Assembly (NCBI GenBank): GCA_018303405.1
Contig: JAGVYD010000014.1
Location: forward strand, 9,350-73,349
Direction: 5' to 3'
Length of the DNA stretch: 64,000 nucleotides
Source of the DNA: Candidatus Woesearchaeota archaeon
GTDB lineage: Archaea; Nanobdellota; Nanobdellia; Woesearchaeales; JABMPP01
Shown piece by piece: positions 1 to 53,964 of the stretch; the first letter of the stretch is position 1; the number at the start of each line of letters is the position of its first letter. Below the pieces are notes generated by a model that made no database searches, was not told the DNA's origin, and saw only the letters and a program-made list of their open reading frames with translations. The position numbers and the translations under genes were made by a program.

Positions 1-1
1 T

Positions 2-565: not shown

Positions 566-591
566 ATTATAAATATAGATTTATCCATATA

Positions 592-941: not shown

Positions 942-963
942 GAAAAAATGCTGAACACCTTGC

Positions 964-1322: not shown

Positions 1323-1375
1323 CTTCTGTTCTTATTCCGAAAAATATTTAAGATGATGCCCAATATTCTTCCATT

Positions 1376-1735
1376 ATGCGCAGAAGTGGCTTTTTTGGCA
1401 GAAGGGGCGTTTCCCCGCTGATTGCAACTGTTGTTCTCATCGGCTTTGCCGTGTCGTTAGGCGCAGTCATAATGAGCTGGGGCAAGACAATCTTTGAAGA
1501 GGAGCCTACGGTTGAGATCCCGCCAGAGCAGTCCAACCTTGTCTGGTACATGGGTAGCAATATCGAAAATGTCTGCTATTCGGGCGAGTCCATCAAAATG
1601 ACGCTGAAGAGCGACCCGAAGATAAACATCAAGTCAATTTTTGTGGCTGCCAGACACAGCCATTATCACAAACTCGCCGCAGAGATGCAGCTAATTCTGT
1701 CTTTGACCACTAAAGAGAATAAATGGCAGGCTTAA
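1376..1735 (+). CDS. Archaeal type IV pilin-like protein with a class III signal peptide.
   Basis: N-terminus FGRRG|VSPLIATVVLIGFAVSLGAVI resembles the archaeal pilin/flagellin prepilin motif (KG-ISPVIATVLLIAI). Confidence 0.5.
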   Translation: MRRSGFFGRRGVSPLIATVVLIGFAVSLGAVIMSWGKTIFEEEPTVEIPPEQSNLVWYMGSNIENVCYSGESIKMTLKSDPKINIKSIFVAARHSHYHKLAAEMQLILSLTTKENKWQA

Positions 1736-3117: not shown

Positions 3118-3174
3118 GCCCTGAATGTCTCAAAATGTGTATATAAAGTTTTTTGTTTTAAGATGCAATTAGAA

Positions 3175-3690
3175 TCAGGATGTAAGGGAAGCGTTCTGGT
3201 AGTTTATCACGACTGGCTTGCCGTCCTGCATCAGCCTCGTTATCCGGGCATTTCCATTGCTGTCAACTTTAACAGCGACCTGCATGTTCCTTGTGCTGAA
3301 TTCAGCATTCCTTTCAAAGAAATATTGCTCAATCCCGTATTCCACCCGCATCGTGCTGCCCGAGACATAATTTACCTTGCCTGCGATAAAGGCCTTATCT
3401 TCCGGCTTTGCTGGTGAGCTTCCGGCATATCTCCAAACATGGTTTTCATCTTCCTCCAGCCATACATAGATATTGTCCCCGCTTTTCACGCCTTCGACAA
3501 AGGGGATTGACCCGATTTCATATGCAATTGTGATGTATTGCCCACGAAAAATGTCAAATGGGTCAACAGGCCTTGTGTCAAGAATGATTTCCTTGCCAAA
3601 CATTAAAGGCCATGTGAGAATAAGTATCATGATTGCCAGAACACCGAGAAGGACACAAAGTCCGATAATCAGCCTTGTTGTTTGCTTCAT
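3175..3690 (-). CDS. GDYXXLXY-family protein.
   Basis: N-terminal TM helix followed by ...DPFDIFRGQYITIAYEI..., which fits the GDYXXLXY domain. It lies immediately downstream of a DUF2157-type membrane protein, as is typical. Confidence 0.55.
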   Translation of the reverse strand: MKQTTRLIIGLCVLLGVLAIMILILTWPLMFGKEIILDTRPVDPFDIFRGQYITIAYEIGSIPFVEGVKSGDNIYVWLEEDENHVWRYAGSSPAKPEDKAFIAGKVNYVSGSTMRVEYGIEQYFFERNAEFSTRNMQVAVKVDSNGNARITRLMQDGKPVVINYQNASLTS

Positions 3691-3692
3691 AG

Positions 3693-5963
3693 CTATGCTC
3701 CCTGTTTAGGTGGTTGCGGGGATTCGACCGGGTTCTCATTCGCCAGGCCTGAATCACGTGGTTTGTCCATGTCTTTTATTTCACGGATGAGCTTTCTTCT
3801 CCATCTCTCAATAAACCAGCCACCGGCCAAAAGGATAATGCCACCAATTATGAAAATCAGGCTTAAGCTGAGGTATCCCCTGAGGTCCATCATAAATCCA
3901 ATATACCGTGTAATAATGAAAAGGGCAAAGAAGAATATTCCCAGGTTTACAAGTTTGGGCAGTCTCTGCCACGTGCCATAGAAAATAATCCCGAGGATTA
4001 CGCCAAGGAATACAAGGTTGGAAAAAATCCATATGACCCATAATGCAAAAGACATGCTGGAACGGCTCCATGCGCCATAATATTCCGCTTCCCAGCTGCA
4101 ATTCCTGTCCGAAGTGCATGTTGACCGGGTAGTTGAGCTGCGGCATTTATCCGACACAGTGTTGTATTCCTGCCTAATAGAAGAAATTGCCGCTCCGCCA
4201 TAAGTATCGGAACAATAACCCTTGCCCGGGCTAATTGCGGAGGTCGGGATAGTTTGAGTTTGTACACAGGACAAGATATTGCCGTGCCCGCTGCTGTCAG
4301 CGAAATTAACAGCCCCTTCAGCATCCTCGAAACTTAGATGTATGGCAAGGTCCTTTTTCAGGCTCTCATTTGTGAATGAATTGGAAAAGAGATCCAAGAC
4401 TTCCGAAGCAGTCAGCGCCCTTCCCCATATTGCAAAGTCATCTACAGAGCCTCTGAAAGCTCTGCCCTCTAAATCAATTTCATTTCCAATTACCACTCGC
4501 TCAGGTGTAGTGTTATATGCATAGCTGGGTGTCCTGGACCTGAATTTGCCATCCAGGTATAAAGTCGTTAGTGTTATTCCTGATTCATAGGTAACTGCCA
4601 CATGGTGCCACTGGTTATCTTTGTACTGCTGTGAGGATGCCATGGTGAACCAGTCTCTATTTTTATTCCAACCCAAAACACCGAATTGGCTTGAATCACA
4701 GGCTTCAATCTGGAAATTTTCACCATCTTTATTTGCGCCGAATCCGCCCAGCGTGCAGGGTGACGATTGATAACTTTCCGGGAATTTAAACCAAAGGGCT
4801 AAAGTCTTATCGCCAGTTGTGGGAAGGCCTGAGGGGGCTTCCTTGATCAAGTAGGATTTTCCTGTATTGGAAAATTCAAGAGCATAACCGAACTTGCCCC
4901 TTACAGACTTGCTGCACAAGGAGGAGGTGGTTGACTGTTGCTGTGCTGGCGCTGCATTAGGGTTGGTCCATTTGCACCCGCTGCCTTCGCATGCCCCTTG
5001 AGAGTCAATGTTGTAGCAGTTTTTTTGTACGCAGTCACCATTGCTGATATTGCGCCACTCACAGATGCTGGCCTGGCTGCATTCGTTTGCTCCATTATAT
5101 TCATAACAATTCACAGGCCTGCACTCCCCAATCTCATTTGACCCCAGCTTTGAAACTCCGATCACCGCGAGCAAAAGGACAACAATTCCCAGGAAGTAGT
5201 ATATTTCCCTCTGGTTTTGTCTATCGCTTTTTTTGGCCAGCATTACCCCAAGAATAAAGATGATTATCGCCACAATTGCGACCACTGTAAAAAACCCCAT
5301 GACGCCTCCCCCGGCGTCCATTCCTTCAATCCACAACACTGACAGGATCAGCTGAAAGCTTAAGAGGTAGGAATACAGCAAAAAATAGAACGCTGCCCAG
5401 AATTGATAAAGCCTGGCAAACGCGTGCTGCCTGTATTTATGCAGCAAATAAAGCCCGAAAAAAAAGACTCCGACTGCCAATAAAATGAAGGACAAATAGA
5501 CAAATGAAAATTCAAAGCCGTTGTCCATGAATGCAAAGTATTGCAGGCACAGCCAGACAAGGAACTCCACAAGGGCCAGGACAAGGTTAATCGCTGATGG
5601 AAGGATGTATGCAGTGAACAGTACACCGGCCCATGCCGGCAGGAATAGCCATGCAGTGCCCTGAAAAGAGACATCTGTGTGAAAAATCTGTGCTATCAGG
5701 AAAATGCTGGAGGTATACAGCAGGGCTCCGAGAACAAATAATGCTTTTGCGGTGCCCCCATATCCCTTTAGCCTGGCCATGACTCCGCTTGCAAATGCTG
5801 CGCATGTAAAAAAAACAAGGATAATAATTTTGACCGCTGAACTGAAGATATGCCAGTTTTGCGCAATTATCCATGCAACTCCTATAAAAATCAAGATTGA
5901 GCCGATTACTGCAACAATGGTGCCAAAAGACGCCATCCCTTTTTTGTTAACCACGTTAAGCAT
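3693..5963 (-). CDS. Large membrane protein. It has a DUF2157-like N-terminal TM domain, an extracellular Cys-rich region and a LamG/concanavalin-like domain, then C-terminal TM helices.
   Basis: Polytopic N-terminus (WIIAQNWHIFSS...). Middle region is Cys-rich with ...QWHHVAVTYESGITLTTLYLDGKFRS...FRGSVDDFAIWGRALTASEV..., a LamG-like jelly-roll signature. Hydrophobic C-terminus. Confidence 0.5.
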   Translation of the reverse strand: MLNVVNKKGMASFGTIVAVIGSILIFIGVAWIIAQNWHIFSSAVKIIILVFFTCAAFASGVMARLKGYGGTAKALFVLGALLYTSSIFLIAQIFHTDVSFQGTAWLFLPAWAGVLFTAYILPSAINLVLALVEFLVWLCLQYFAFMDNGFEFSFVYLSFILLAVGVFFFGLYLLHKYRQHAFARLYQFWAAFYFLLYSYLLSFQLILSVLWIEGMDAGGGVMGFFTVVAIVAIIIFILGVMLAKKSDRQNQREIYYFLGIVVLLLAVIGVSKLGSNEIGECRPVNCYEYNGANECSQASICEWRNISNGDCVQKNCYNIDSQGACEGSGCKWTNPNAAPAQQQSTTSSLCSKSVRGKFGYALEFSNTGKSYLIKEAPSGLPTTGDKTLALWFKFPESYQSSPCTLGGFGANKDGENFQIEACDSSQFGVLGWNKNRDWFTMASSQQYKDNQWHHVAVTYESGITLTTLYLDGKFRSRTPSYAYNTTPERVVIGNEIDLEGRAFRGSVDDFAIWGRALTASEVLDLFSNSFTNESLKKDLAIHLSFEDAEGAVNFADSSGHGNILSCVQTQTIPTSAISPGKGYCSDTYGGAAISSIRQEYNTVSDKCRSSTTRSTCTSDRNCSWEAEYYGAWSRSSMSFALWVIWIFSNLVFLGVILGIIFYGTWQRLPKLVNLGIFFFALFIITRYIGFMMDLRGYLSLSLIFIIGGIILLAGGWFIERWRRKLIREIKDMDKPRDSGLANENPVESPQPPKQGA

Positions 5964-6009
5964 TGTGCGTCAAATAGGATATAAATATTTATCGGTCACC
6001 AAAAAAGCC

Positions 6010-7062
6010 CTAGACAAAAAAGAAAGCAATGGCAAGGATGGTATAAACAGCGATAAGCTGCACGCCCTCGAGCCAGTTCCCCCTTCCGTCTGTCACAAGA
6101 TAATTGAGGATCATGACAGTTGACAGCAATGCCGCAATTTCAAACAGGTTGAACACCAGCGAGAATTTGTGGTCAAAAAATGAGCTGACAAAAACCAGCA
6201 CAGGGACAACAAAAAGGCTGATCTGGTTGGCTGAGCTCGCCCCGATTTCAAGCGATATGTTTATCCTGTTTTTCAGGACCATTGTGATTGCAGCAATCAT
6301 TTCTGCAACGTTGGATATTACGCCGACAACCACTATTCCAATGAATATATGCCCCAGCCCCAATTTCTGGCTGAACGATGTCAGGTCATTCACAAGAATG
6401 TTGGCCATGAATGTGACTGCAATCGAAGAAAAGAACAGCACCCACAGCGATTTCCTTTTGCTCCACTCTCCCTCAATTTTGGAGATTATTATGTCTTCTG
6501 AGTAAAACAGGTATTTGTGGGTGTACAGTGAGAACAGGAGGCTGGCGATGTATATAAGCGCAAGCACAATTGAGACCAGGGTGCTGAGGAGTTGTGGATC
6601 GCTTCCGGTTGTGTACTTGTAAATAGTTGGCATGCTCAGGCCAGTCACGGCTATGACCAGCATTGTCCCGGATATGCCTGCTGATATGATATTGAATTTC
6701 TGCTCCTTGTACTTTAATCCGCCTATGAAAACGCTTAATCCGATTAGAAGGAGAATGTTAACCATGATGCTTCCCACAATTGACCCGCGGACAAGGTCCA
6801 GATAGCCCTGGGATATGGCAATAATGGACACTGACAGCTCGATGAAATTGCCAAAGGTTGCATTCAGGATTCCGGCGACTTTTGGATTGCTGTGTGCGGC
6901 AAGGTTCTCTGTTGCACGGCCAAGCATCCTGGCCAGGCCAACCAGTGCCAGTGTAGCCACAATAAATGCAAGGGTCCTGTAGTCAGAAAAATAATGTATT
7001 AAGATTGCTACAGGTATCAGCCATAACAATCCAGCCATGTATCGGTCAAATTTTCTGCCCAT
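6010..7062 (-). CDS. CaCA-family cation/proton exchanger (Ca2+/H+ antiporter, ChaA/CAX-like).
   Basis: Two internal repeats carry GNxxE-type motifs (GNFIELSVSI and SNVAEMIAAI). Polytopic, 350 aa. Confidence 0.7.
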   Translation of the reverse strand: MGRKFDRYMAGLLWLIPVAILIHYFSDYRTLAFIVATLALVGLARMLGRATENLAAHSNPKVAGILNATFGNFIELSVSIIAISQGYLDLVRGSIVGSIMVNILLLIGLSVFIGGLKYKEQKFNIISAGISGTMLVIAVTGLSMPTIYKYTTGSDPQLLSTLVSIVLALIYIASLLFSLYTHKYLFYSEDIIISKIEGEWSKRKSLWVLFFSSIAVTFMANILVNDLTSFSQKLGLGHIFIGIVVVGVISNVAEMIAAITMVLKNRINISLEIGASSANQISLFVVPVLVFVSSFFDHKFSLVFNLFEIAALLSTVMILNYLVTDGRGNWLEGVQLIAVYTILAIAFFFV

Positions 7063-7182
7063 GTTGCCTGCTAAGGGTATGCCTGCCTGAACAGATATAA
7101 ATTACTTGCTGTTTGGCAGCACGTGTGGAAAAGCTTATATATTGTTCACTTTACCTCTCAAAGCAGAAGAAGCTGCTATTAT

Positions 7183-7199
7183 GGGCTCCTAGCTCAGCC
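7183..7199 (+). repeat. 17-nt direct copy of the tRNA-Lys 5' end (GGGCTCCTAGCTCAGCC). It lies 144 nt upstream of the tRNA.
   Basis: Exact match to tRNA positions 1-17; the sequence diverges afterwards. A 9-bp-stem hairpin (ATGGGATTT...AAATCCCAT) lies between the copy and the tRNA. Confidence 0.6.
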
Positions 7200-7326
7200 A
7201 TGGCAACTGAACTCTCGGTTGACAAGCGAGGCGTGTAAATGGGATTTTCACTTTGCTCAAATCCCATGAACTCACCGAGAATATCCATGAGCTGAAATGA
7301 ACAGCCGCAGAAAAGACAATCACAAT

Positions 7327-7422
7327 GGGCTCCTAGCTCAGCCTGGTCAGAGCGATTGGCTCTTATGCATGGAGAAGTGCAAGGAAACCAATAGGTCGGG
7401 GGTTCGAATCCCCCGGGGCCCA
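7327..7422 (+). tRNA. tRNA-Lys(CUU) with a canonical 21-nt intron after position 37.
   Basis: Manual fold: acceptor GGGCTCC/GGGGCCC; D-arm GCTC...GAGC; anticodon stem ATTGG/CCAAT; anticodon loop CTCTTAT (CUU). A 21-nt insert lies between loop and 3' stem. T-arm GGGGG-TTCGAAT-CCCCC; discriminator A. Confidence 0.85.
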
Positions 7423-7525
7423 TGACATTTTAATAAAATCATATAGCGAATACCCGCAGACCTATCTGCGCGATAAAGCCCGCCGTTTCCTTGCAATGTT
7501 TATGCAAGAGAAAGGAACTGGACAA

Positions 7526-8341
7526 TTAATTATCCAGCGGACTTTTTATTTTGATCATTTTTGGCCTTACGGCATGAGTGTATCCTAAGGTTGTTTCCGG
7601 AGTTACATGACCAAGCAGGGATTGTACTGTGGCCACATCTTGTCCAGACTCTAGCAGGTGTGTTGCGAATGAGTGTCTGAAAATATGCGGATGGACATGT
7701 TTTCGGATTTTTGCTTTATGGCCTGCCTTTTCCACTATCATTTGTACGGATTTTGTTGTTAATGCACCTTTTCTTCCTGGAAATAACCATAACTTTTCGT
7801 GCCCACACCCTCTTTTCAGTTCTTCCACTATTCTTTGTGGTATGATGAATGGCCTGTCCTTATTTCCTTTTCCTCCCCTTACCCATCCAATGTTTTCTTC
7901 AAATGAGAAATCATTTATCCTTAACTGTGTAACTTCTCTTACACGTAGCCCTGCACCGTACATTAATGAGACCAATAATTTATGTTTTGGATTTTCTATG
8001 ACATTCAGTATTTTTTGGACTTCTTCTTTTGTCAGGTATTCTGGCTTTCTTACAGGGGTCTTGGCATATCTTATCTTTAGATAGCATGCCTTATGCAGTA
8101 TGTCTATCATCATGAATCTGAGTGCATTATGTGCCACATTTAGTGTACTTCCTGATGCCCCTCTTTCTTCCATCTTGTAAAGGAATTCTCGCACATCTTT
8201 TTTGGAAAATGCTCTTATTTCCCTGTCCTTATTTGCTAATAAGAATAATTTCACATATTGCATATATGTCTTGACCGTTCTTGGAGATAACTTCCTGCGT
8301 AGCATCTCTCTCTTCATATTATAGAGTATGTCAATAGTCAT
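7526..8341 (-). CDS. Tyrosine recombinase/integrase of the XerC/XerD/XerA type.
   Basis: 271 aa. C-terminal catalytic motifs ...HIFRHSFATHLLESGQDVATVQSLLGHVTPETTLGYTH (R..HxxR..Y). It lies next to the tRNA 3' end. Confidence 0.85.
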   Translation of the reverse strand: MTIDILYNMKREMLRRKLSPRTVKTYMQYVKLFLLANKDREIRAFSKKDVREFLYKMEERGASGSTLNVAHNALRFMMIDILHKACYLKIRYAKTPVRKPEYLTKEEVQKILNVIENPKHKLLVSLMYGAGLRVREVTQLRINDFSFEENIGWVRGGKGNKDRPFIIPQRIVEELKRGCGHEKLWLFPGRKGALTTKSVQMIVEKAGHKAKIRKHVHPHIFRHSFATHLLESGQDVATVQSLLGHVTPETTLGYTHAVRPKMIKIKSPLDN

Positions 8342-8598
8342 TTCCCCGGGAAATGCTCTCCTCTTAAAATGTGTAATCCTAAAAAATTCGGAGAATTTCC
8401 GCCCAATCCCGTAAAATCAGTCTTCACCACCCTCAAAAGAGCACACTTTTTCCTCACCAATCCCTTAAATTCTGCCTTCCCAAGCCCCATAACCCCATAA
8501 TCCTGCCTTCTTCGCATATATAGTGTTATACGCAATTCAAAAAATATTTTTCTAGATTAATCGAAAGATTTATTTATTCCTATTTTAAATATCAATGT

Positions 8599-8964
8599 AT
8601 GGCTTCAACTAAACCAAAAACTTCATCTATAGATAAGTACATTTCACAATTTCCAAAAGAGATTCAAAGGGTTTTAGAAAAGCTTAGGCAAACAATCAAA
8701 AAATCGGCTCCAAAATCTGAAGAAACAATGAGCTATGGTATACCGACTTTTGATATGAACGGGAAGCATTTGGTTCATTTTGCTGCATTTAAAAAGCACA
8801 TTGGCTTCTATCCAACTCCTTCTGGCATAATCAAGTTCCAGAAAAAAATGTCAGATTATGAAACCGCAAAAGGCTCTGTGAAATTTCCTCTGGATAAGCC
8901 TATCCCATTTGATTTAGTAAAGGAAATTGTGAAATTCAGAGTTGAAGAAAATAAATCTAAATAA
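8599..8964 (+). CDS. DUF1801 (YdhG-like) domain protein.
   Basis: ...MSYGIPTFDMNGKHLVHFAAFKKHIGFYP... matches the DUF1801 core. Confidence 0.55.
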   Translation: MASTKPKTSSIDKYISQFPKEIQRVLEKLRQTIKKSAPKSEETMSYGIPTFDMNGKHLVHFAAFKKHIGFYPTPSGIIKFQKKMSDYETAKGSVKFPLDKPIPFDLVKEIVKFRVEENKSK

Positions 8965-9101
8965 GGTTTAACGAAAAATATTTTTTGAACTCACTCCGCT
9001 ACGCTCCGTGCCGCGCTGCGCTCTCCTCCTTTCAGTCGTCGGGGCTTATAACAGCGGTTAATTGCAATGATGGCATTTGTAGTAAAAGTATATGGTTAAT
9101 T

Positions 9102-9584
9102 TTATTCTTGCAATATCCTAATCGTCTCTCTTTGCACTTTTAATATCAATTCTTTTATTCTTTTTAACTGCTGTAAATCAATGCTTGTTTCAACGCCATA
9201 AGTTGAAATTTCCCTGCTCTCTTTTACTGTTGGATTTGTGATGCTCTTTTCAACATCAAGTGTATCAAATTGAGTAACCAAGTCTTTATCCAAGTTCAGT
9301 TTCTTCTCGTTTATCAAAGTGAGCAAAACAGTTATCGTACAAGTCTGATTTCTTGACTCATGGCCATATTTGGCGAGGATTGCTAAAAAGCAGTGATATA
9401 TGGAATAAAAGCCGACATTTAAAGCCCAGTCATATATTTTCAACCTTTCAAGTGTTTGCGCTACACTATAATTATACTCTGACTTCTTAACGTGCTTTTG
9501 CGCCAAATCCAAATCTGGCTTTGTTTTTATCAGTCTTTTTGGACCTTTCAAACACCATTTTAGATGCTCGCCTATTTGCAGCAT
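9102..9584 (-). CDS. HEPN-domain protein, the putative toxin of an MNT-HEPN pair.
   Basis: All-helical 160 aa. The ...AQKHVKKSEYNYSVAQTLERLKIYDWALNVGFYSIYHCFLAIL... region is HEPN-like. It overlaps the upstream nucleotidyltransferase gene by 13 nt. Confidence 0.45.
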   Translation of the reverse strand: MLQIGEHLKWCLKGPKRLIKTKPDLDLAQKHVKKSEYNYSVAQTLERLKIYDWALNVGFYSIYHCFLAILAKYGHESRNQTCTITVLLTLINEKKLNLDKDLVTQFDTLDVEKSITNPTVKESREISTYGVETSIDLQQLKRIKELILKVQRETIRILQE

Positions 9585-10201
9585 TTTCTAACTACCTCAA
9601 CATATTTTTCAGGATTATGAAATACAAGACTCTCTGATAGTATACTATAAAAAATTTTGTCGTTTTTATTTAATGCAATATCCTTTTCTGCTATATCCAC
9701 ATATCTTATAGGTTTTTCAACTAATTCAGATTTTCTTATTTCATCCTTTATTTTTTTGATGTCGTTAGATTTTTTAGCATCATACATAAGCAAAATATCT
9801 ACATCGTTAAAATCCTTAGTTTTTATAGATGAACCAAAAATTAATCCCATTTCAATGCAGTCCTTAAATTTCTTCAAACTATGAGATACCACACTTAACC
9901 ATTTAGGGAAGTTTCTTTCTTCCAAACTCAGCATATACTCCATAAATTTTATTGCTAGCTTGTTGCCATATTCATAATAAAAAAAGACCGAATTCCCCAT
10001 GTCTTCTTTGGCTAATAGCTTTTTATCCACCAAAATATTACATAATTTATTAGCGTGAGCGTGATTTATATTCAAAATTCTAGCCAATTGCCTAGCGTTG
10101 TATCTATCCTTATAATGCTTAAACAGATAGTTGGCTATCTGAACTTCAATTTTTGTAAATTGTATGTTACTAACATCCATATGTATGCTGAAAACATACA
10201 T
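9572..10201 (-). CDS. Minimal nucleotidyltransferase (MNT) with an N-terminal wHTH, the putative antitoxin partner of the HEPN protein.
   Basis: NTase signature GSSIKTKDFNDVDIL (GS-x9-DxD). The gene order MNT then HEPN is operon-like. Confidence 0.6.
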   Translation of the reverse strand: MYVFSIHMDVSNIQFTKIEVQIANYLFKHYKDRYNARQLARILNINHAHANKLCNILVDKKLLAKEDMGNSVFFYYEYGNKLAIKFMEYMLSLEERNFPKWLSVVSHSLKKFKDCIEMGLIFGSSIKTKDFNDVDILLMYDAKKSNDIKKIKDEIRKSELVEKPIRYVDIAEKDIALNKNDKIFYSILSESLVFHNPEKYVEVVRKCCK

Positions 10202-10329
10202 AATATATAAATTTTATGATTTTAAGCCTATAATTTTTGCTTTTAGCATGAGTGTGCCCCTTTACTATTGTCCTTGTAAGTGCACAATTAACCGAAAATT
10301 TTATATATTACGTGCCCTTACAGCATCAT

Positions 10330-11268
10330 ATGGCTTATATCGAAATATTAAAACGAAATAAAAAAGAGTATTATTACCTCACAAAAAATATAAGGCTTAG
10401 TTTAAACAAATGGAAGAAGATAAGGGTGTTCTTAGGGGATAAGAAACCTTCAAAAGAAGAACTAAAAAAATATGCCCGAGAAATAGAGGATAAATCAAAA
10501 CCTTTTTCAAAAATCTCAAATTATACATATCTTTCAGAGCATGATGCAGAAACCTTGCAGGATTTAAAGGAAAGCTACACAACTTGGCTTAAACAAATTC
10601 CAAAAAGTGTCAAGGAAAAACTGAATGAGGATTTCGTAATACGTTTTACATACCATTCCAATGCAATTGAAGGCAATCGGCTTACATTAAGACAAACCGC
10701 CCTTATTCTAAAAGATAAGGTAATACCTTCTGGAATACGTGCAGAAGATTACAATGAAGCAATAAACGGAAAAGAATGTCTGGATTATATAAACTTGTAT
10801 AAAGGCGAATTAAACACAAAATTCCTTGAAAGAATAAATGGGATTCTAACAAAAAACACTGGAGTTGTTTATGGAGGAAGAATCAGATTTTTTGATGTAC
10901 AGATACAAGGTTCAACGCATGTTCCGCCACCTCATGCTGAAGTCAAAAAGCACTTGCTCAACTTCTCTAAATGGTATAGCGCAAATAAGAATAAACTACA
11001 CCCATTTGAATTAGCAGTATTGGTTCATGCAAAATTGGCATGGATACATCCCTTTGAGGATGGAAATGGCAGAACTGCAAGAACAGTTATGAATTTTATC
11101 TTAATGAAAAAGGGTTTCCCTATGTTTTTTATACCATTTGAGAAAAGAGAAGAGTACTATCAATCATTAGATATTGCCGATAAAGGAGAATATAAAGAAT
11201 ACATCTCCAGAATGCTTCAGTTAATTATAGACCAGATAAGAAGTTACGGGCACAATAAGAAAGAATAA
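10330..11268 (+). CDS. Fic/Doc-family protein (AMPylator-type).
   Basis: Canonical Fic motif HPFEDGNGRTAR, plus the upstream inhibitory helix motif SNAIEGN (S/TxxxEG/N). The start may be at 10252. Confidence 0.85.
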   Translation: MAYIEILKRNKKEYYYLTKNIRLSLNKWKKIRVFLGDKKPSKEELKKYAREIEDKSKPFSKISNYTYLSEHDAETLQDLKESYTTWLKQIPKSVKEKLNEDFVIRFTYHSNAIEGNRLTLRQTALILKDKVIPSGIRAEDYNEAINGKECLDYINLYKGELNTKFLERINGILTKNTGVVYGGRIRFFDVQIQGSTHVPPPHAEVKKHLLNFSKWYSANKNKLHPFELAVLVHAKLAWIHPFEDGNGRTARTVMNFILMKKGFPMFFIPFEKREEYYQSLDIADKGEYKEYISRMLQLIIDQIRSYGHNKKE

Positions 11269-11665
11269 TTCTTTGGATTGTGCACATACAATTACTTTTA
11301 ACAATAACTCCCCGATTCTTGCTACTATTTTTGTGAGTGTGCCCTTTGATTCTTGTCCTTAAAGTATCGCTTCGCTCTTTTGATTGGACTGTGCGCCCCT
11401 GCGTCATAGCTATCCCCGGGACATTCGTCAGTCGATCGATGCCGAGTATGGTCGACGTTTTGGCAAGGCTTGACCGACTCCGAAAAATGGGCTCTACTCT
11501 GAAGGTCTCCGTCTCATTTTTCTCCGTCCAAATTCCATAAAAAATGCCATGCATTTTTGGGCGCCAAAAACCGAGGGTTTTTAGTGTTTTTCTGCAAGAA
11601 AATTAAGTGACTGAAAACAAAAACTTTAATAAATATTCAAAGTTGTTTATAATAAAGGAGAAACT

Positions 11666-11941
11666 ATGACAAAAAAGTCCATCGCAAATGGTGTTGCGCA
11701 CAATGTGCCAGAAGATATAAAAAAAACTTTGTCTTCCAATTCAGACATCCTTGAAAAATGGAACAACCTTACTCTGATTCAACGTAATGAGTGGATTTGC
11801 TGGATTACCATAGTCAAAAAGCCGGAAACGAGGGTTGAACATATACAGCGGATGGTTGCGGAACTAAAAGAAGGCAAACGCCAACCCTGCTGTTGGCCTG
11901 GCTGCCCGCACCGCAGACCAAAGGCAAAAAAGTGGTTTTGA
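11666..11941 (+). CDS. YdeI/OmpD-associated family protein (DUF1801-related).
   Basis: ...ITIVKKPETRVEHIQRMVAELKEG... matches the conserved AKKPETRxKRI motif of the YdeI family. Confidence 0.55.
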   Translation: MTKKSIANGVAHNVPEDIKKTLSSNSDILEKWNNLTLIQRNEWICWITIVKKPETRVEHIQRMVAELKEGKRQPCCWPGCPHRRPKAKKWF

Positions 11942-12230
11942 CATACGTGGAGCACCAGCCCCTAACTTACGAAAACGTCGAGCTGGGTGAAAATGCCTTC
12001 TGATATTAGAAGGCTCGGCGGCGCCCTCTTTGCTGACCGCCGCTACGGCAATGTCTTCGTATATCACAACGGCGCGGAATCTTACTATGCCGCCAGGGCG
12101 TTCCGTGGCTCGCTAAGGGCCTGGATTTTACGCAGACAGCGAAGGTGGTAAACCTTGCTACACGCTTCAGAAAAGTAACATAGTTCTAATGCATGTGTTT
12201 AAGGGATACTGTGCGCTTTTGTTTTTCTAA

Positions 12231-12644
12231 TCAAACAAACGAAGAATGCGCAGGAGGGGGCAAATCAGCCTTCCCTAATTTGCGAATTCTAAGCTCCAGT
12301 TTGTTATAATCATCCTTGTGTATCCGGTTCTTGTCAAAAACATCTTTTGATGCGCGGAAATGTTTGGTTATATCATTGCCTTCCTTGCTCCACAGGTCCA
12401 GGAGGTCCTTGGCTTCTGTATATCTTGTGGCAGTTCTTTTGGCAACTTGAAAAACTTGACCTCTTGGGTTCGGGACAAACTCATAATAGTCATACAGGAT
12501 TTGATAAACATAATCCTGCCTCAGTCTTTCTGGAAAACGCTCATACACCAGATCATCTGCATTTATGGTGTACAATTCCTGGTGCACATTTAGGGGCTCG
12601 CTCACATCTGCCATTTTCTCACCCTTGCTTCTGTTCATGGGCAT
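12231..12644 (-). CDS. Hypothetical protein, paralog of the 12619-12993 protein.
   Basis: 137 aa. It overlaps the upstream paralog by 26 nt and has the same strand and architecture. No recognisable family. Confidence 0.45.
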   Translation of the reverse strand: MPMNRSKGEKMADVSEPLNVHQELYTINADDLVYERFPERLRQDYVYQILYDYYEFVPNPRGQVFQVAKRTATRYTEAKDLLDLWSKEGNDITKHFRASKDVFDKNRIHKDDYNKLELRIRKLGKADLPPPAHSSFV

Positions 12645-12993
12645 CCGCCTTGCCAGCCATTGGTACCTGGCGTATTTTCCTTATTTTCACTTCCAGATTT
12701 TCAAATGTATTGGTGTCAATCAGGCCATGTTCCAGCGTCCCCAAAGTCCATCTCAAATCATCAACAATCTCTTTGCCTATTTTCCTCCACAGGTGTTGGA
12801 TATTCATGGCATGGACCTGTATAGTCTCATCACGCCGATGCTCAATCCGGAACTGGGTGCCTATATATGCCTGGCCGCACGCAATGATAGGGTATGTTAC
12901 TTCGTAAAGGTATATGGGACGGGGAGTCTTCCGGTCATAGTATTTTTTAAGCGCGTCGGCCACTTTTATTGTCAGGTATTCTTGTTTTGCCAT
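12619..12993 (-). CDS. Hypothetical protein. It is paralogous to the adjacent downstream ORF.
   Basis: 124 aa. It shares N-terminal (YLTIKVADAL / LYTINADDLV) and C-terminal (NLEVKIRKIRQ / KLELRIRKLGK) blocks with the 12231-12644 protein. Confidence 0.45.
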   Translation of the reverse strand: MAKQEYLTIKVADALKKYYDRKTPRPIYLYEVTYPIIACGQAYIGTQFRIEHRRDETIQVHAMNIQHLWRKIGKEIVDDLRWTLGTLEHGLIDTNTFENLEVKIRKIRQVPMAGKADAHEQKQG

Positions 12994-13112
12994 ATTCTCA
13001 CCAATATTACTATTATATAATAGTTAATAGTGTATACCAATATTTAAAATTATTTAATAATTTTTCATAAAAAACAACAAAATTTATATAATAATTGTAG
13101 TAAAATAAGGAT

Positions 13113-14093
13113 ATGGGCAATTCGCAACTCAAATTGACAGCCATTGACAGAAAACTGCTTTATGAGCTGGATATGGATGCACGGCAGTCCATATCGGCGT
13201 TGGCAAAAAAAACCAGGTCAAGCCCCGCAGTCATTGAGTACCGGATGAAAAGGATGGAAAAATCAGGCCTGATCAGGAAGTATATCACCTTCCTTGATGC
13301 GGGCAAGCTGGGCCTGATGGTTTGGAATGTCTATCTTAAGCTGCAGAACGCCACAAGCAAGGAAGAAAAGGAAATCCTTGATTATCTCGCATCATTAAAA
13401 CGGACCTGGTGGGTGGCCTCCTGTTCAGGGAAGTGGGATATCATCTATAGCCTGTGCGTCAAGGATGTAAAGGAATTTTACTCAATTGCAGCTGATGTCC
13501 ATAACAGGTATGGGGAATTCATAACCGACCAAAACATAGAGGCGCATGCTGAAGTTGAGATAATTTCGCGCGGGTACTTCGTTAAGAAGGGAGGCATGGG
13601 CTCGACGTGGTACAAGGCAATAGAAAAAAGCATGATAGATGGCAAAGACCTGAAAATCCTCAAGGCCATTGCAGAAAATGCCAGGTTAATGTCGACAGAT
13701 GTGGCAAAAAAAACAGGATTGACATCAAGGATTGTGTCTTATCGCATAGCTGAGCTTCAAAAAAATGGGATCATCCATAGGTTCAGGCTGGTCTTGGATG
13801 TATCCAAGATAGGGATGAGCTTCTATAAGGTTGTGGTGCACCTGAAAAACTACACTGAAAGGAAAAATTTTGCCCTCAAGCAGCATTGCATTGACGAGGG
13901 GAATATATTCCATTATGAGCAGAAAATAGGCTCCTGGATGCTGGAGCTTGAGCTTGACGCCGGGAATTATGAATCAGCTGACAGGCAAATGAAAAGGATG
14001 AAGGAAAAGTTCCCTGATTTTATTAGGGACTATGAGCTTCTGCTGATTACCGGAGAGCCAAAGGCGGAATTGGACCTTACCAAGCAGATCTAA
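13113..14093 (+). CDS. Fused tandem Lrp/AsnC-like protein with two HTH plus RAM-like modules. It is a regulator or an AhbA/B- or NirDL-like siroheme-decarboxylase-fold protein.
   Basis: Two internal repeats each start with an AsnC-type HTH (LTAIDRKLLYELDMDARQSISALAKKT... and KDLKILKAIAENARLMSTDVAKKTGLTSR...). Each is followed by a beta-alpha-beta RAM-like region. Confidence 0.6.
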   Translation: MGNSQLKLTAIDRKLLYELDMDARQSISALAKKTRSSPAVIEYRMKRMEKSGLIRKYITFLDAGKLGLMVWNVYLKLQNATSKEEKEILDYLASLKRTWWVASCSGKWDIIYSLCVKDVKEFYSIAADVHNRYGEFITDQNIEAHAEVEIISRGYFVKKGGMGSTWYKAIEKSMIDGKDLKILKAIAENARLMSTDVAKKTGLTSRIVSYRIAELQKNGIIHRFRLVLDVSKIGMSFYKVVVHLKNYTERKNFALKQHCIDEGNIFHYEQKIGSWMLELELDAGNYESADRQMKRMKEKFPDFIRDYELLLITGEPKAELDLTKQI

Positions 14094-14171
14094 AGAAACA
14101 CCACATCGGGCATGGTCATTGTTCACCTGGGAATAAATAAACTTTAAATAGGTGTCCATGGTTAATTTTTT

Positions 14172-15359
14172 ATGACTAGGGAGGCCTCACATTACCTTGT
14201 AAAATCAATTGTGCAGGCAGTAAAGCCTTGGTTTCAGTCGGAACAGATTATTGCAGTTCTGGAAAGAGTTATCAGCGAGAATCCGAAACTTGTCTTCAAA
14301 GCCGGAATTAATCACCTTATGCGCGTTCCGAGGATATGGCAGAATTCTGAAAAATTCGAAGCAAAATACAAATTTCCAGGGCCCAGGGTCATTTTTATTA
14401 ACCCTGGTGAATATTGTCAGCTTCAATGCGATGGCTGCGGTACGCATGACAAATCAACTGAAAAACTTAAATTAGAAGAGATGGATTCCATTGTAAACCA
14501 GGCAAAAGAACTTGGTTCACATTCTATTGTTCTTCTGGGCAAAGAACCCCTCCACCCAAAAACTTCGGATGATGTTTATAGCCTGATTGACAATCACAGA
14601 GACATGTTCTTCTTTGTTTTTACAAACGCAATAAATTTAGAAAATAGATTCGTCGATTTAACGCAAAAAAATGCTAATATTTTTTGGAATTTGAGCGCTG
14701 ACGGAATTGGGGAATATTCTGAAAGGTCGCGTGGGAGAGGATCCTTCAGGTTTGTCGAGGATGCAATGGACAGGTTGCATAAAGCGAAGATTCCGTACGG
14801 AATCTCCTTTACTGTAAGAGAACATAACCAGGACCATCTTTCAGATCCGGAGACACTGAAATTTTTCAATGATAATGGGGCAGTTGTGGCTCTTTTTTTT
14901 CCTTACGGTCCGGCAAATGGTTGGTATAAGGGTGTGATGATGACATCTAAAGAGCGAGCTGCATTTGACGAAAGAATTAAGCATATCCAGGATGAAACGC
15001 CGATGGTTTTGATAAATTATGTTGACAGGTTGAAATATGCTGGTTGCGCAGCGGGCAGAGGGCATTTTTATGTAAGGTCTTCAGGAGAAGTGTTGCCTTG
15101 CTTTACAACCAGCTTCTCAATGGGCAATGTTAAAGAAACACCATTGGAGCAAATAATTACTTCTCCGGCAGCGAGACAATTTCGTGAATTGCATGAAGAA
15201 GGTGGGAATGCCTGCCTGGTTCTAAATCTGCCTCATCGCATTATGGACCTTGCAAGGCAGCAAAATTTGCCGCAGACAGATCCTACTGTTGCAAATGTCG
15301 CAAGATTAATTGCAGATGATCCTCTATACAGACAGGAATATCATGCAGGACCGAAATAA
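14172..15359 (+). CDS. Radical SAM enzyme with an ~80-aa N-terminal extension and a C-terminal twitch/partial-SPASM-like Cys region.
   Basis: CX3CX2C motif CQLQCDGC at ~aa 83-90. C-terminal ...AGCAAGRGHFYVRSSGEVLPCF...GGNAC resembles an auxiliary-cluster (SPASM/twitch) domain. Confidence 0.7.
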   Translation: MTREASHYLVKSIVQAVKPWFQSEQIIAVLERVISENPKLVFKAGINHLMRVPRIWQNSEKFEAKYKFPGPRVIFINPGEYCQLQCDGCGTHDKSTEKLKLEEMDSIVNQAKELGSHSIVLLGKEPLHPKTSDDVYSLIDNHRDMFFFVFTNAINLENRFVDLTQKNANIFWNLSADGIGEYSERSRGRGSFRFVEDAMDRLHKAKIPYGISFTVREHNQDHLSDPETLKFFNDNGAVVALFFPYGPANGWYKGVMMTSKERAAFDERIKHIQDETPMVLINYVDRLKYAGCAAGRGHFYVRSSGEVLPCFTTSFSMGNVKETPLEQIITSPAARQFRELHEEGGNACLVLNLPHRIMDLARQQNLPQTDPTVANVARLIADDPLYRQEYHAGPK

Positions 15360-15426
15360 TTCCTGTTTAACCATTCTCCCTCGTAAAATCACAATATTTA
15401 AAAACACCAAAGTTATTTTACCGTCG

Positions 15427-15567
15427 ATGCCAAAGAAATGCATTATATGCGAAGGCCCTGCAGTCTTTTCAATTAGGGGCACGAATGATTTTTACTGCTT
15501 CGAGTGCGCAACGGAGAATTTTGCAGACATCAGCGTCCTCGAAAAGCTTGAAGCGCCTCAGCAATAA
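15427..15567 (+). CDS. 46-aa zinc-ribbon-like peptide (CxxC-x18-CxxC) directly downstream of the radical SAM gene.
   Basis: MPKKCIICEGPAVFSIRGTNDFYCFECATENFADISVLEKLEAPQQ. An AT-rich TATA-like box (atatttaaaaa) lies ~30 nt upstream. The longer ORF-track start at 15310 overlaps the rSAM gene. Confidence 0.4.
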   Translation: MPKKCIICEGPAVFSIRGTNDFYCFECATENFADISVLEKLEAPQQ

Positions 15568-15620
15568 AAAGTATTAAATACCGCTGATTCTAAAAAACAA
15601 GTGCTTGCGGAGGGTTCACC

Positions 15621-17039
15621 ATGGTCTTGGAGCATTTTCGGCGAAAGATGAAGGCTAATCATGGTTTGCTGGAGAACACCATGATAATAGCGGTCACTTC
15701 AGTGCTTGCGAACATGTTCAATTATATCTTTTATTTTTACACTGCAAGAAAGCTTGGCCCTGAGCAGTACAGCGTCTTCGGGGCGCTGCTTTCCATATAT
15801 TTCATATTCTTCTTTCTTACGAACATAATGAACTATATTGTGATTCAATACGTCTCCTATTTCCGTGCAAAGACACAGTTTGACAAGATCAGGAGGATGT
15901 TTGACCTTACAACAAAGTCCATGACAATAGTGGGTTTCTCCATATTTCTTGCCCTGGTTATATTGAGCGCGCCAATAAGGCATTTCATAAAGCACGACTC
16001 CATTGTGCCGATTGTGTTCCTTGGGCTGTTTATCTGGGCTTATGTCATCCTTGCAACATTTTTTGGCATGCTTAACGGGAACCAGAAATTCAGGTTTCTG
16101 GGCGCCGGAAGGGTGACAGATGGTTTTTTCACCCTGGTCTTCGGCGCAGTCTTCCTCAGCCTCGGCATGGGAGTCTCAGGCGCCCTGCTCGGCCTTTTCT
16201 TTGCGGCCCTGCTTACAATCCCGTTTGTGATTGTGCCGCTGAAATTCCTCTTTTCCATCCAGCCGGCAAGGATTGGCGATGTTGGCATACTGCCTTACAT
16301 CCTGAAGTCAATCGGCCTTTCGCTTATAATTGGCATCATGCTGAATATTGACGTGATAATGGTTAAGATATTTTTTACCAGCCTGGACGCGGGCTATTTT
16401 GCAGCTGCATCGCTGATGGGCAAGATTATATTCTTTGTGTCAACAGGGATGCTCTCTGTGATGTTCCCCAAGGCAGCGGAATTGCACAGCAATGGTGAGG
16501 ACAGCAGCCCTTTGCTCAAGGATGCCTTGACCTACACTGCAACAATCGGTTTTTCCATAACCTTGCTCTACCTGGTATTCCCTAATTTTTTTGCGCACAT
16601 ACTTTTCAGCGCTGATTACAAAATAGCAAATCTGATAGGCCTTTATGCGCTGAGCACGACATTTCTTGCGCTTACAAATGTGTTTGTGATGTACAACATG
16701 GCAATCAAAAGATTTTCAACTGCCTTTACATTGCTGCCCTTTGCTGTCCTTGAGATAGTGGTCATAAGCGTTTTCCGCAGCTCGTTGTTTGTGGTGCTTT
16801 CCCTTATGTGCCTGACTATGTTCCTCGCATTTGTCTCGATTGTTTATTTCAACCAGGAGGAATTCCTCAAGATGTTCAGGAAAACAACAGGCTACAGGAA
16901 GTATCCTGTCTCGGCCTATTTGCGGCTCAAGACAGAGTCCGACAGTAATAATAACCGGCACACTTCATCCAGGAAAATCAAGATGGAAGAGCTGGATGAG
17001 TTTCTCGATTTGAGCGACATCCCGGATAAAAAAGAGTGA
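15621..17039 (+). CDS. MOP-superfamily (Wzx/MATE-like) polytopic exporter/flippase.
   Basis: 472 aa with ~12-14 TM helices and a hydrophilic C-terminal tail. The topology is typical of oligosaccharide or peptide exporters. Confidence 0.55.
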   Translation: MVLEHFRRKMKANHGLLENTMIIAVTSVLANMFNYIFYFYTARKLGPEQYSVFGALLSIYFIFFFLTNIMNYIVIQYVSYFRAKTQFDKIRRMFDLTTKSMTIVGFSIFLALVILSAPIRHFIKHDSIVPIVFLGLFIWAYVILATFFGMLNGNQKFRFLGAGRVTDGFFTLVFGAVFLSLGMGVSGALLGLFFAALLTIPFVIVPLKFLFSIQPARIGDVGILPYILKSIGLSLIIGIMLNIDVIMVKIFFTSLDAGYFAAASLMGKIIFFVSTGMLSVMFPKAAELHSNGEDSSPLLKDALTYTATIGFSITLLYLVFPNFFAHILFSADYKIANLIGLYALSTTFLALTNVFVMYNMAIKRFSTAFTLLPFAVLEIVVISVFRSSLFVVLSLMCLTMFLAFVSIVYFNQEEFLKMFRKTTGYRKYPVSAYLRLKTESDSNNNRHTSSRKIKMEELDEFLDLSDIPDKKE

Positions 17040-17054
17040 CGCAAGGGATCTTAA

Positions 17055-17218
17055 GGTGCTATAGAAAATGTAAGTCTTGCCATCGTTTATGCGAGCATTT
17101 CAATGCCACAGAAGCACATGCAAAGGAGATTGCAAGAGGAATTTGCATCTTCACGCTGAGCCAGAGCATGCGAGCTGATGGCAAGACCGAGGCGTTAGCC
17201 GAGATTTTCTACAGCGCT
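17055..17218 (+). mobile_element. MITE-like element, copy A (164 bp), with ~14-nt terminal inverted repeats and an 8-bp imperfect target-site duplication.
   Basis: TIRs GGTGCTATAGAAAAT / GATTTTCTACAGCGC. Flanks ATCTTAAG / ATCTTGAG. About 90% identical to the reverse complement of 53784-53948. Confidence 0.75.
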
Positions 17219-17261
17219 CAATCTTGAGCAAAGTTTCTATATTGGAGTCAAAAGAAAAACA

Positions 17262-18008
17262 TTATTGCTGGATTGTTTCCGTGGTTTCCACGGAATTTTC
17301 AGATGATTGGTCAGGCTGCACATCCCTTGCCTGGCCTGAGTCCTGCTGGCCCTGCCTTGGAGATGGCCTTTCAGGCATTTTTCTTTCCAAAAGCTCGGAT
17401 GGCCTCTTTGTTTCTTCACTGGCCTTGCTCAGCTCCTGGCCAGGAATTGTTTCAAGGACGCGTAGTTCAGCAATGGACAGTGGGTAGGTTTTTTTGAGAT
17501 GGTCCCTTAACGCCCTTTGGACTTTATAGTTTATGACATCCATGAACAGGGTCAGGTAATTTGATTTTGTGACAACTGCTTCCAGAAATGCAAGCGCTTC
17601 CTTTCTCAGGCTGATGTGGATTGATTTCCTTGTCTGTGACTTGGTTACGAACATGGGCTTCAGTTTCATCTTGATGCCGTCTGCAGAACTGCACTTGAAG
17701 GAATAGTCAAGCTTGTCCTTCTTTCTCCTCACAATCCTTCGTATGCTGGATGAAACAATTGAATAAGAAACAGGGTATGCTATTCCCTTTGCGCCGACAA
17801 CCTTCTCAACCCTGAACTTCAGGTTGATATTTTGGTTCTTTGGATTTCCGGTCAGGCTCATCAGGTTTGCCTGGATGTGCCTTCCCTTCATCTGGTCAGG
17901 CATTTCCAGCGGCAGCTCGCCAATGAATGTTTCGCCAAAAGTCGAATTGGTATAAACCTGGTACCAGTTTTTTCTCTTGATTCTAAGCTGTGATTTTTCT
18001 GTAGCCAT
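17262..18008 (-). CDS. rps3ae: 30S ribosomal protein S3Ae (eS1) with a low-complexity C-terminal extension.
   Basis: N-terminus ...KRKNWYQVYTNSTFGETFIGELP... matches the S3Ae signature (KxKxWYxVxAPxxFG). Confidence 0.75.
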   Translation of the reverse strand: MATEKSQLRIKRKNWYQVYTNSTFGETFIGELPLEMPDQMKGRHIQANLMSLTGNPKNQNINLKFRVEKVVGAKGIAYPVSYSIVSSSIRRIVRRKKDKLDYSFKCSSADGIKMKLKPMFVTKSQTRKSIHISLRKEALAFLEAVVTKSNYLTLFMDVINYKVQRALRDHLKKTYPLSIAELRVLETIPGQELSKASEETKRPSELLERKMPERPSPRQGQQDSGQARDVQPDQSSENSVETTETIQQ

Positions 18009-18117
18009 TTTGCCAATGAATTGGGACTAATGAACCCTTTATAAAGTTATCTGAGGGATGGCTCTGTTTTAGCAGGTGTTGCTGCCAGCATTTTCAACAG
18101 CACATAACAAAACAAGC

Positions 18118-18335
18118 TTAGCAGAAAACTTCGCCTGAAGGCTCAGGTTTTGCCATCGGCTCGCATGGGCATCTTACTCACGAGGGCAGTTTTCTCCCTG
18201 GAGCTTAACGATTTTTGGAATCGCTTAAGTGCCGAACGAGCAGAGCGAGTGACCGCACTCCGAAAACTGCTGCCTGCCTTATTTCCAGGTGCTCGCGGAA
18301 TTGATGGCAAAACGTAAACTTTCCTGCTAAGCCAC
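18118..18335 (+). mobile_element. Degenerate third copy or relative of the MITE family.
   Basis: gcagaaaacttcgcctgaaggctcaggttttgccatcggctcgcat aligns with the 5' part of the 53.8 kb copy (gtagaaaatctcggctggtgcctcggtcttgccatcggctcgcat). The 3' part (attgatggcaaaacg) resembles gctgatggcaagaccg. Confidence 0.35.
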
Positions 18336-53948: not shown

Positions 53949-53964
53949 TATTTTCAGGCAAAGC

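Follow-up and report, generated by a model that had tools for sequence, protein, structure and literature searches.

What is the origin of the accessory DNA beside the tRNA-Lys gene of this 64-kb stretch (the window, analysed at its full length), and how did it come to lie there? The genome, here called AR3 ('archaeon GW2011_AR3', contig QS98_C0002), is that of a groundwater Woesearchaeote (DPANN) with ~46% GC. A preliminary description had taken positions 7183-17220 for a ~10-kb island bounded by tRNA-Lys and a Xer-like tyrosine recombinase on the left and by a miniature inverted-repeat transposable element (MITE) on the right, and had read it as an element integrated at a tRNA hot spot; its alternative was that the recombinase is the host's own XerA, the enzyme acting at the chromosomal site dif, with the island accreted beside it. 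We found that this alternative gives the best fit. Our analysis leans, with some reserve, towards a composite, lineage-specific accessory region of ~8 kb that lies beside the host xerA gene and a candidate dif site, rather than a single tRNA-Lys element, and we infer capture by XerA as the route by which foreign DNA arrived.

Extent of the variable region

Limits for the variable DNA come from comparison with a syntenic relative, L001 (CAZSAD010000008.1), a public metagenome-assembled genome of 30% GC labelled 'uncultured Methanosarcinales archaeon'. This label looks wrong, given that L001 shares gene order and 57-89% protein identity with the Woesearchaeote (FtsZ and a 544-aa protein, both 89%; LysRS, 74%; a PurF-like protein, 73%; Spt5, 70%; S3Ae and the antiporter, both 61%). 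Its genes run antiporter, tRNA 5' fragment, tRNA-Lys, a 247-aa open reading frame (ORF), a CxxC...CxxC miniprotein, exporter, S3Ae, FKBP, FtsZ and Spt5, the last four of which also stand to the right of the exporter in the window. All nine genes from xerA through the radical S-adenosylmethionine (rSAM) enzyme are absent from L001, where tblastn found no counterpart of the Lrp/AsnC or rSAM genes and where the 247-aa ORF belongs to no family and is unrelated to the window segment. L001 has counterparts of the CxxC...CxxC protein (65% identity) and of the exporter (57%) as a pair (7001-8663) in the same place next to S3Ae. Because L001 keeps tRNA-Lys and this pair but not the genes between them, we place the variable part at ~7,423-15,400. 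The right-hand 1.8 kb with peptide and exporter is, to judge from this comparison, conserved synteny outside the variable region, so that the proposed ~10-kb island stands as a variable region of ~8 kb and loses its right part with peptide, exporter and MITE.

Within these limits, the view of the segment as accessory and variable holds, with genes absent from L001, partly foreign composition and genes of defence or toxin-antitoxin type. The same gene content is not shared by the one syntenic relative, since L001 lacks the segment genes. An empty site with tRNA-Lys directly abutting S3Ae had been proposed as a check: the segment is missing from L001, but the 247-aa ORF, miniprotein and exporter lie between tRNA-Lys and S3Ae there. 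All genes of the supposed Lrp-rSAM-peptide-exporter module are present; L001 has the peptide/exporter pair without rSAM or Lrp. Since the pair is kept in this way, the 46-aa CxxC...CxxC protein seems likelier to be a zinc-ribbon partner working with the exporter than a peptide on which the rSAM enzyme acts.

The MITE is likewise real but is no island boundary, as it sits between the exporter and S3Ae, whose order L001 shares, with a gap of only ~66 bp there. Its two full copies in the window are ~160 nt long, with ~14-nt terminal inverted repeats (GCGCTGTAGAAAAT) and a 9-10-bp target duplication. A partial copy of 45 nt lies at 18123-18167, near a cluster of single-nucleotide polymorphisms (SNPs) among population contigs (18,088-18,203). 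The MITE is an independent, unrelated insertion.

Composition of the segment

Part of the segment is clearly foreign in composition when set against the 48 window genes outside 7,400-17,100 (GC 0.471 +/- 0.020; GC at third codon positions, GC3, 0.543 +/- 0.049). The genes for XerA (GC 0.384), DUF1801, HEPN, a nucleotidyltransferase (MNT) and Fic form one block and are the five lowest-GC genes of the window (GC 0.29-0.38, z -4.3 to -9.1; GC3 0.29-0.37). The GC and codon profile against the flanks, proposed as a check of the island, thus separates this clearly low-GC block from the remaining genes, which are mostly host-like and near the host GC value, with the rSAM gene (GC3 0.376) as the exception. 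Repeats bracket single genes: a perfect 17-nt inverted repeat encloses the DUF1801 gene (8536-8552 / 8973-8989), and a 27-nt direct repeat, 85% identical and unique in the window, stands on either side of the Fic gene (10249-10275 / 11334-11360). With its low-GC block, these repeats and a GC-rich DUF4256 fragment, the segment is of composite origin.

Such a sharp compositional change inside a metagenome-assembled contig could also arise if DNA of two organisms had been joined by an assembly or binning error. We regard a chimera as scarcely credible, because the same junctions recur in more than 10 contigs from independent assemblies and assemblers (samples in ENA, JGI and NCBI), which are 99.8-100% identical across the region.

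tRNA-Lys as a possible integration site

The recombinase gene does lie next to the 3' end of tRNA-Lys, as first described, its stop codon being 103 bp away in convergent orientation. This is the usual geometry of an integrase beside its attachment (att) site, and the locus might accordingly hold a degraded integrative element at the tRNA-Lys 3' end that carried its own XerA-like integrase, spanned the low-GC block from 7,526 to ~11,330 and lost its distal att site by decay. The xerA gene is as low in GC3 as the four cargo genes, and a junction with DNA of native composition falls just past its stop codon, as it does in a second Woesearchaeote (L128). SNP density and contig fragmentation are also higher in the block: among contigs of the AR3 population, 10 SNP positions fall within 7.5-11.3 kb and 5 in the other ~13 kb, two clusters excepted (one at a probable assembly error, one beside the partial MITE copy), and 11,420, a position just right of the block, is the exact end of contigs from two independent assemblies (L058 and L059).

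Yet the signs of integration that the tRNA gene itself should show are missing. No second copy of the tRNA 3' end, which had been proposed as a check, occurs within 3 mismatches in the 64 kb, and neither the gene nor the sequence downstream of it (7327-7530) has a significant repeat within 8342-17300. The sole tRNA duplicate copies the 5' end, lies on the opposite side of the gene and occurs as well in L001, which has no island. No plasmid, virus, replication, structural or excisionase genes were found among the window proteins (Pfam, NCBIfam and PADLOC), and searches of viral contigs found neither relatives of the recombinase nor copies of the conserved site described below. Seven other Woesearchaeota loci with this recombinase family (L060, L062, L064 in CP060219.1, L126, L128, L131 and L132) have no tRNA beside xerA, and in two of them (L131 and L132) xerA has near-native or native composition next to foreign DNA. 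We therefore consider the degraded element unlikely, though it keeps some weight, and a discrete element integrated at tRNA-Lys, the first interpretation of the segment, is not supported, lacking both att duplication and a tRNA-linked recombinase family.

The resemblance to archaeal elements that integrate into tRNA genes by pNOB8/SNJ2-type integrases has the same limits. In both, a tyrosine recombinase whose N domain is SAM-like neighbours a tRNA gene and has cargo beyond it, and XerA and the pNOB8/SNJ2 integrases cluster together in a similarity network (PMC8371274); AR3, unlike these elements, lacks att duplication and plasmid or virus genes, and its recombinase family is not tRNA-linked elsewhere.

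A recombinase of the XerA family

By family model and structural comparison, the recombinase is a member of the XerA-like family. Its best family model is NCBIfam recomb_XerA_Arch, at 198.3 bits against a cut-off of 220 (close homologues score 192-204 and one 59%-identical homologue 227), and its best relative in the PDB is Pyrococcus abyssi XerA (4a8e; E 4.5e-38), aligned in one colinear stretch. The grouping with chromosomal XerA that the preliminary description had named as evidence against an island is thus what model and structure indicate, the model score staying below its cut-off. The protein is 70-82% identical to a large Woesearchaeota family, in whose alignment R133, H219, R222, H245 and Y254 are invariant; we read these residues as the likely catalytic set. 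No second tyrosine recombinase is encoded in the 64-kb window.

The seven other loci, which with AR3 make eight, surround xerA with ordinary genes (topoisomerase VI, CTP synthase, beta-CASP RNase, thioredoxin and ribosomal proteins, CCA-adding enzyme), and each neighbourhood is different. XerA is chromosomally encoded in most archaea, as dimer resolvase (PMC8371274), and the position of its gene varies between genomes (PMC8371274, PMC2958812).

Integrons offered another comparison, as there too a recombinase gene diverges from a series of small accessory genes, toxin-antitoxin-like ones among them, and the integron-integrase model scores 195.6 bits on the AR3 recombinase against 198.3 for the XerA model. 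The defining feature of integron integrases is an IntI-specific additional domain (PMC9668308, archaeal integrons, Ghaly et al. 2022), and AR3 lacks this segment of ~46 residues, residues 180-246 of the VchIntI4 chain being skipped in the alignment. A scan for R''/R' core pairs found no attC-like sites in the intergenic DNA of 8300-13150, and with the IntI domain also missing we ruled out an integron.

A conserved palindrome upstream of xerA

When the upstream regions of the xerA loci are aligned, similarity between genomes starts abruptly at a 28-nt palindrome and runs on through the xerA leader. Its consensus is AATTGCATATA-ACCATA-TATATGCGAAG, and the AR3 copy (AATTGCGTATAACACTATATATGCGAAG) lies ~170-196 nt upstream of xerA, the only one in the window. 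All eight loci have a single copy, 166-224 nt before the xerA ATG. A leave-one-out position weight matrix (PWM) built on six sites gave 26-35 bits in these six loci and at most 17 bits for anything else there; in L131 and L132 the site has diverged further and was recognised by eye. Among 132 fetched loci, the exact IUPAC pattern of the site matches xerA-bearing loci only. Two 11-bp inverted arms around a 6-bp spacer are the layout of Xer core sites, and we regard the palindrome, with this layout and its place near xerA, as a candidate dif.

Placement of dif beside the recombinase gene is familiar from single-recombinase Xer systems such as XerS/difSL of streptococci and XerH/difH of Helicobacter. 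Within archaea, the closest parallel is in the Sulfolobales, whose predicted dif is close to xerA and has a conserved flank on one side only (Cortez et al. 2010, PMC2958812). AR3 resembles them in having one Xer-type recombinase and, near its gene, a unique imperfect inverted repeat with ~11-bp arms, a 6-bp spacer and the same one-sided conservation; it differs in that the AR3 site is predicted from sequence only and may be a promoter.

Other searches upstream of xerA brought little. An early one for conserved 11-N6-8-11 palindromes with at least 9/11 arm complementarity in six loci returned only AT-rich noise, and a k-mer scan flagged TATATATGCGAAGA marginally (60, against at most 56 in shuffles). 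The leader yielded no consensus RNA structure, and a 59-65-codon ORF in it is not conserved in the other genomes. Overlapping this ORF is a 36-nt imperfect direct repeat at 8403-8492 (75% identical, 54-nt spacing) with the motif CCAATCCCnTAAAwTC. A further sequence, AATTGAATATAA, was seen in L132 (200-262), ~25 nt upstream of its diverged site; it matches the left arm of the L064 and L126 sites exactly and may be a duplicated half-site.

Native and foreign DNA meet at the palindrome

On the side of the palindrome away from xerA, the DNA of the higher-GC genomes turns AT-rich and foreign. For AR3 the switch is from a GC of 0.446 in the leader to 0.164 over the 61 bp that follow the site. GC was measured in two 1-kb stretches per locus, one beyond the site and one flanking the 3' end of xerA; in this order, the values were 0.343 and 0.472 for AR3, 0.359 and 0.564 for L128, 0.269 and 0.605 for L131, and 0.309 and 0.457 for L064; the other loci gave 0.298 and 0.384 (L060), 0.347 and 0.377 (L062), and 0.319 and 0.299 (L126). 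In the L132 contig (~60% GC), GC is only 0.24-0.36 over the first 250 nt, a stretch that takes in the 230 nt beyond the site.

Two loci separate the history of xerA from that of its neighbouring DNA. The two L131 genes beyond the site have a GC3 of 0.15-0.16, as against 0.674 for xerA itself (near-native) and 0.80-0.86 for the genes on its 3' side, and the L132 xerA has native composition (GC3 0.867). With xerA of native or near-native composition next to foreign DNA, xerA is therefore the resident and the DNA beyond the site the import in both genomes.

A possible island on the same side of xerA was noticed in L062, a Woesearchaeote of 35% GC: the 10 kb upstream of its xerA (1-9800) hold mostly unknown small genes along with PRTase-CE, DUF5677 and a second integrase of 419 aa, and look like an island.

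Proposed capture beside xerA

Taken together, the preferred reading of a composite region beside host xerA would run as follows. The gene at the left end would be the lineage's ordinary XerA-type gene, whose product would by its family resolve chromosome dimers at dif, here the candidate site at 8510-8537, with AT-rich foreign DNA starting just beyond. XerA recombination at or near the site would have captured, beside xerA, DNA without a recombinase of its own, as in bacterial IMEX (integrative mobile elements exploiting Xer), and this DNA would then have decayed and been overlaid by later arrivals. The DUF1801 gene, the HEPN/MNT pair and the SoFic-like Fic gene would be a recent low-GC layer; further right, the truncated DUF4256 gene, the OmdA-only ORF, the two paralogues of unknown function, Lrp and rSAM would form an older or differently sourced one. 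Observed directly are the genes present, their absence from L001, the break in composition and the conserved site with its position; both that the site is dif and that XerA did the capturing are what we infer from these patterns.

IMEX, of which the CTX phage and the gonococcal genetic island are examples, have dif at one side and a second dif-like site at the other, and to our knowledge none has been described in archaea. Like them, the AR3 region places recombinase-less foreign DNA directly beside the host Xer site (a candidate here), a pattern that recurs across genomes; unlike them, it shows no second dif-like site bounding the foreign DNA and no circular form, empty site or polymorphism.

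Several results weigh against capture at dif by a resident XerA. Within the window we found no second dif-like site bounding the foreign DNA, even a degenerate one, the best PWM score inside the island being 10.9 bits and a half-site-like match at 11,290 scoring 7.9 bits, both at noise level. A scan with the experimentally validated P. abyssi dif did not lift the site above the AT-rich background, although the left arm of the consensus is identical to an arm of that dif at 10 of 11 positions, and an AT-rich palindrome in this position could simply be the xerA promoter (TATA box and B recognition element, TATA/BRE). The GC asymmetry has the expected direction in six of the seven loci with measurable flanks, for which a sign test gives ~0.06, and the L128, L131 and L132 contigs end inside the distal DNA, hiding its extent, although ends there are also as expected of a strain-variable spot. 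The GC3 of xerA in AR3 (0.349, against the host mean) is island-like, so that xerA may have arrived with the block; the AR3 xerA module as a whole may have been imported or replaced. The AR3 population shows no excision, since every one of its contigs carries the region and neither polymorphism nor an excised form or empty site was seen among them, and the exact island proteins, searched for in other contexts, matched the AR3 strain only.

The comparison with L001 adds a further point of this kind, because with a single syntenic relative an insertion in AR3 is indistinguishable from a loss in L001. Genome and metagenome scans with the antiporter returned L001 only, the contigs of FtsZ relatives stop at FKBP or S3Ae, and an S3Ae protein search gave four matches and no further syntenic locus. 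It could thus be argued that nothing was acquired: the region would be ancestral and deleted or replaced in the L001 lineage, and its low GC would reflect relaxed or different selection on rarely expressed genes. The single comparison, which cannot be polarised, and the fixation of the region in the AR3 population agree with this, as does the GC3 of xerA, which is below that of the host in three of the four higher-GC genomes (AR3, L128 and L131, with L132 native). We nevertheless find an ancestral region quite improbable, as the GC3 shift of ~0.2-0.25 is sharp-edged over five adjacent genes and far beyond the scatter among the 48 background genes, the high-GC truncated fragment and gene-bracketing repeats point to several insertion or deletion events, and low-GC DNA beside xerA recurs in unrelated gene neighbourhoods.

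A wider version of capture by XerA is possible, but we hold it only tentatively and with clearly less confidence. Woesearchaeota dif would lie ~200 bp upstream of xerA, and the xerA/dif module would be a recurrent landing pad at which XerA captures recombinase-less AT-rich DNA, the archaeal counterpart of IMEX, with the AR3 island as one case; the module itself would sometimes be replaced or relocated.

The island by itself is an ordinary variable region with a few defence-type genes in a genome-reduced archaeon. More useful is the conserved palindrome, tightly linked to xerA and marking a sharp junction of native and foreign DNA in several Woesearchaeota. If it is dif, it would be the first candidate dif for DPANN archaea and a simple marker of the terminus region in fragmentary genomes, would make Xer-mediated capture a testable route of gene acquisition in small-genome symbionts, and would explain contig breaks just upstream of xerA in Woesearchaeota.

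Gene content of the segment

Features were identified with Pfam, NCBIfam and PADLOC on the window proteins and with Rfam and ARAGORN for the tRNA (Table 1). The genes listed in the preliminary description are all present by Pfam, with further matches from PADLOC, whose defence-system models the Fic and MNT proteins match. From these models, the segment is predicted to carry genes of defence or toxin-antitoxin type. It recalls defence islands in that a SoFic-like Fic gene and a HEPN/nucleotidyltransferase pair, whose two genes overlap, are clustered in low-GC DNA; it differs from them in having only two candidate systems, known from sequence, and in that most of the AR3 region is not defence-related.

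Table 1. Features of the tRNA-Lys/xerA region, in window coordinates
Feature	Position	Strand	Evidence and remarks
Na_Ca_ex antiporter	6010-7062	-	Pfam
19-nt duplicate of the tRNA-Lys 5' end (17 nt plus 2 upstream bases)	7181-7199	+	Exact repeat of 7325-7343
Structured spacer, 125 nt, between duplicate and tRNA-Lys	7200-7324	+	
tRNA-Lys(CUU) with 23-nt anticodon-loop intron	7327-7422	+	Rfam tRNA 57.5 bits; ARAGORN 7326-7423; anticodon read from sequence
XerA-family tyrosine recombinase, 271 aa	7526-8341	-	Pfam Phage_integrase and SAM-like N domain
xerA leader, ~170 nt	8342-8509	-	Conserved in eight genomes (alignments); box AGAAAAA(G/C)TGT
Candidate dif-like core site (given on the xerA strand)	8510-8537	-	AATTGCGTATA-ACACTA-TATATGCGAAG, 11-6-11 imperfect inverted repeat
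DUF1801 gene	8599-8964	+	Pfam; GC 0.336
HEPN gene	9102-9584	-	Pfam HEPN 6.8e-5; GC 0.350
Winged helix-turn-helix (wHTH)-nucleotidyltransferase (MNT) gene	9572-10201	-	Pfam Polbeta 5.9e-4; PADLOC PDC-M05A 2.1e-10; GC 0.289
Fic gene	10330-11268	+	Pfam Fic 5.2e-20; PADLOC SoFic 1.9e-30, also PDC-S04; GC 0.329
OmdA/YdeI C-terminal-domain protein, 91 aa	11666-11941	+	Pfam OmdA 3.4e-15
DUF4256 gene fragment, C-terminal ~43 residues	11966-12148	+	Pfam DUF4256 3.4e-20, profile positions 130-172 of 173; GC 0.56
Two overlapping genes of unknown function, 137 and 124 aa	12231-12644, 12619-12993	-	26% identity, E 1e-8
Tandem Lrp/AsnC regulator	13113-14093	+	Pfam
rSAM-SPASM enzyme	14172-15359	+	Pfam; GC3 0.376, z = -3.4
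CxxC...CxxC (Zn-ribbon-like) protein, 46 aa	15427-15567	+	
Polysacc_synt-type exporter	15621-17039	+	Pfam
MITE-like insertion	17,058-17,217	.	89% identical inverted copy at 53,785-53,950

The paired proteins that had been called paralogous are true but distant paralogues (Table 1), and neither matched Pfam, NCBIfam or PADLOC. The GC-rich patches that had been described as non-coding fare differently. The one at 11,966-12,148 is coding in origin, being the C-terminal DUF4256 fragment, which its profile match marks as an apparent truncated pseudogene remnant. Another patch, of 61 nt and 64% GC, lies within the AT-rich block between DUF1801 and HEPN (8990-9050); it is repeated nowhere else in the window, and no coding remnant could be recognised in it.

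The duplicate of the tRNA-Lys 5' end

Position 7183, given in the preliminary description as the left limit of the island, falls in a duplicate of the tRNA 5' end; the gene itself is at 7327-7422. The stretch from one to the other (7183-7326) has a fold z of -2.0 and no Rfam family match. L001 has the same 5'-fragment duplicate (9661-9781), with a spacing of ~122 nt as against 144 nt in the window and a spacer fold z of -2.7, and a more distant organism (L085) has a single tRNA copy only. Though they differ in sequence, the AR3 and L001 spacers both fold moderately well, and each has a hairpin as well as a CAGCC(C)GCA motif that could pair with the GGGCU start. Either an ancient att scar 5' of the tRNA or a small RNA element might account for the duplicate.

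Host and strain observations

Of ten proteins of the region matched by exact sequence, those listed with a full source name come from 'archaeon GW2011_AR3', as does the recombinase. The FtsZ homologues of the window at 75-84% identity are all from Woesearchaeota or Nanoarchaeota, and a second deposit of the identical FtsZ is labelled Candidatus Woesearchaeota. These relatives and the 30% GC of L001 led us to reject a methanogen (Methanosarcinales) host with DNA transferred from a DPANN donor. GC skew, inspected as an origin or terminus signal, tracks the coding strand only.

Minor differences were seen between contigs of the AR3 population. Besides the two assemblies that end at 11,420, other contigs end at 12,599 and 14,730; variation between strains, hidden in the right half of the region, may account for these ends. 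Two contigs (L056 and L072) carry a variant (window 14731-14741 and 15609-15645) with a frameshifted rSAM gene (204 + 197 aa) and an exporter shortened to 452 aa. The variant comes either from an assembly error or from a real strain in which rSAM is broken. In several further assemblies of the strain, 125 extra bases stand between window positions 1652 and 1653, a sequence without a match elsewhere in the window. Far from the region, a 468-aa gene at 43338-44744 is another compositional outlier, with a GC3 of 0.324 against the window mean of 0.54.

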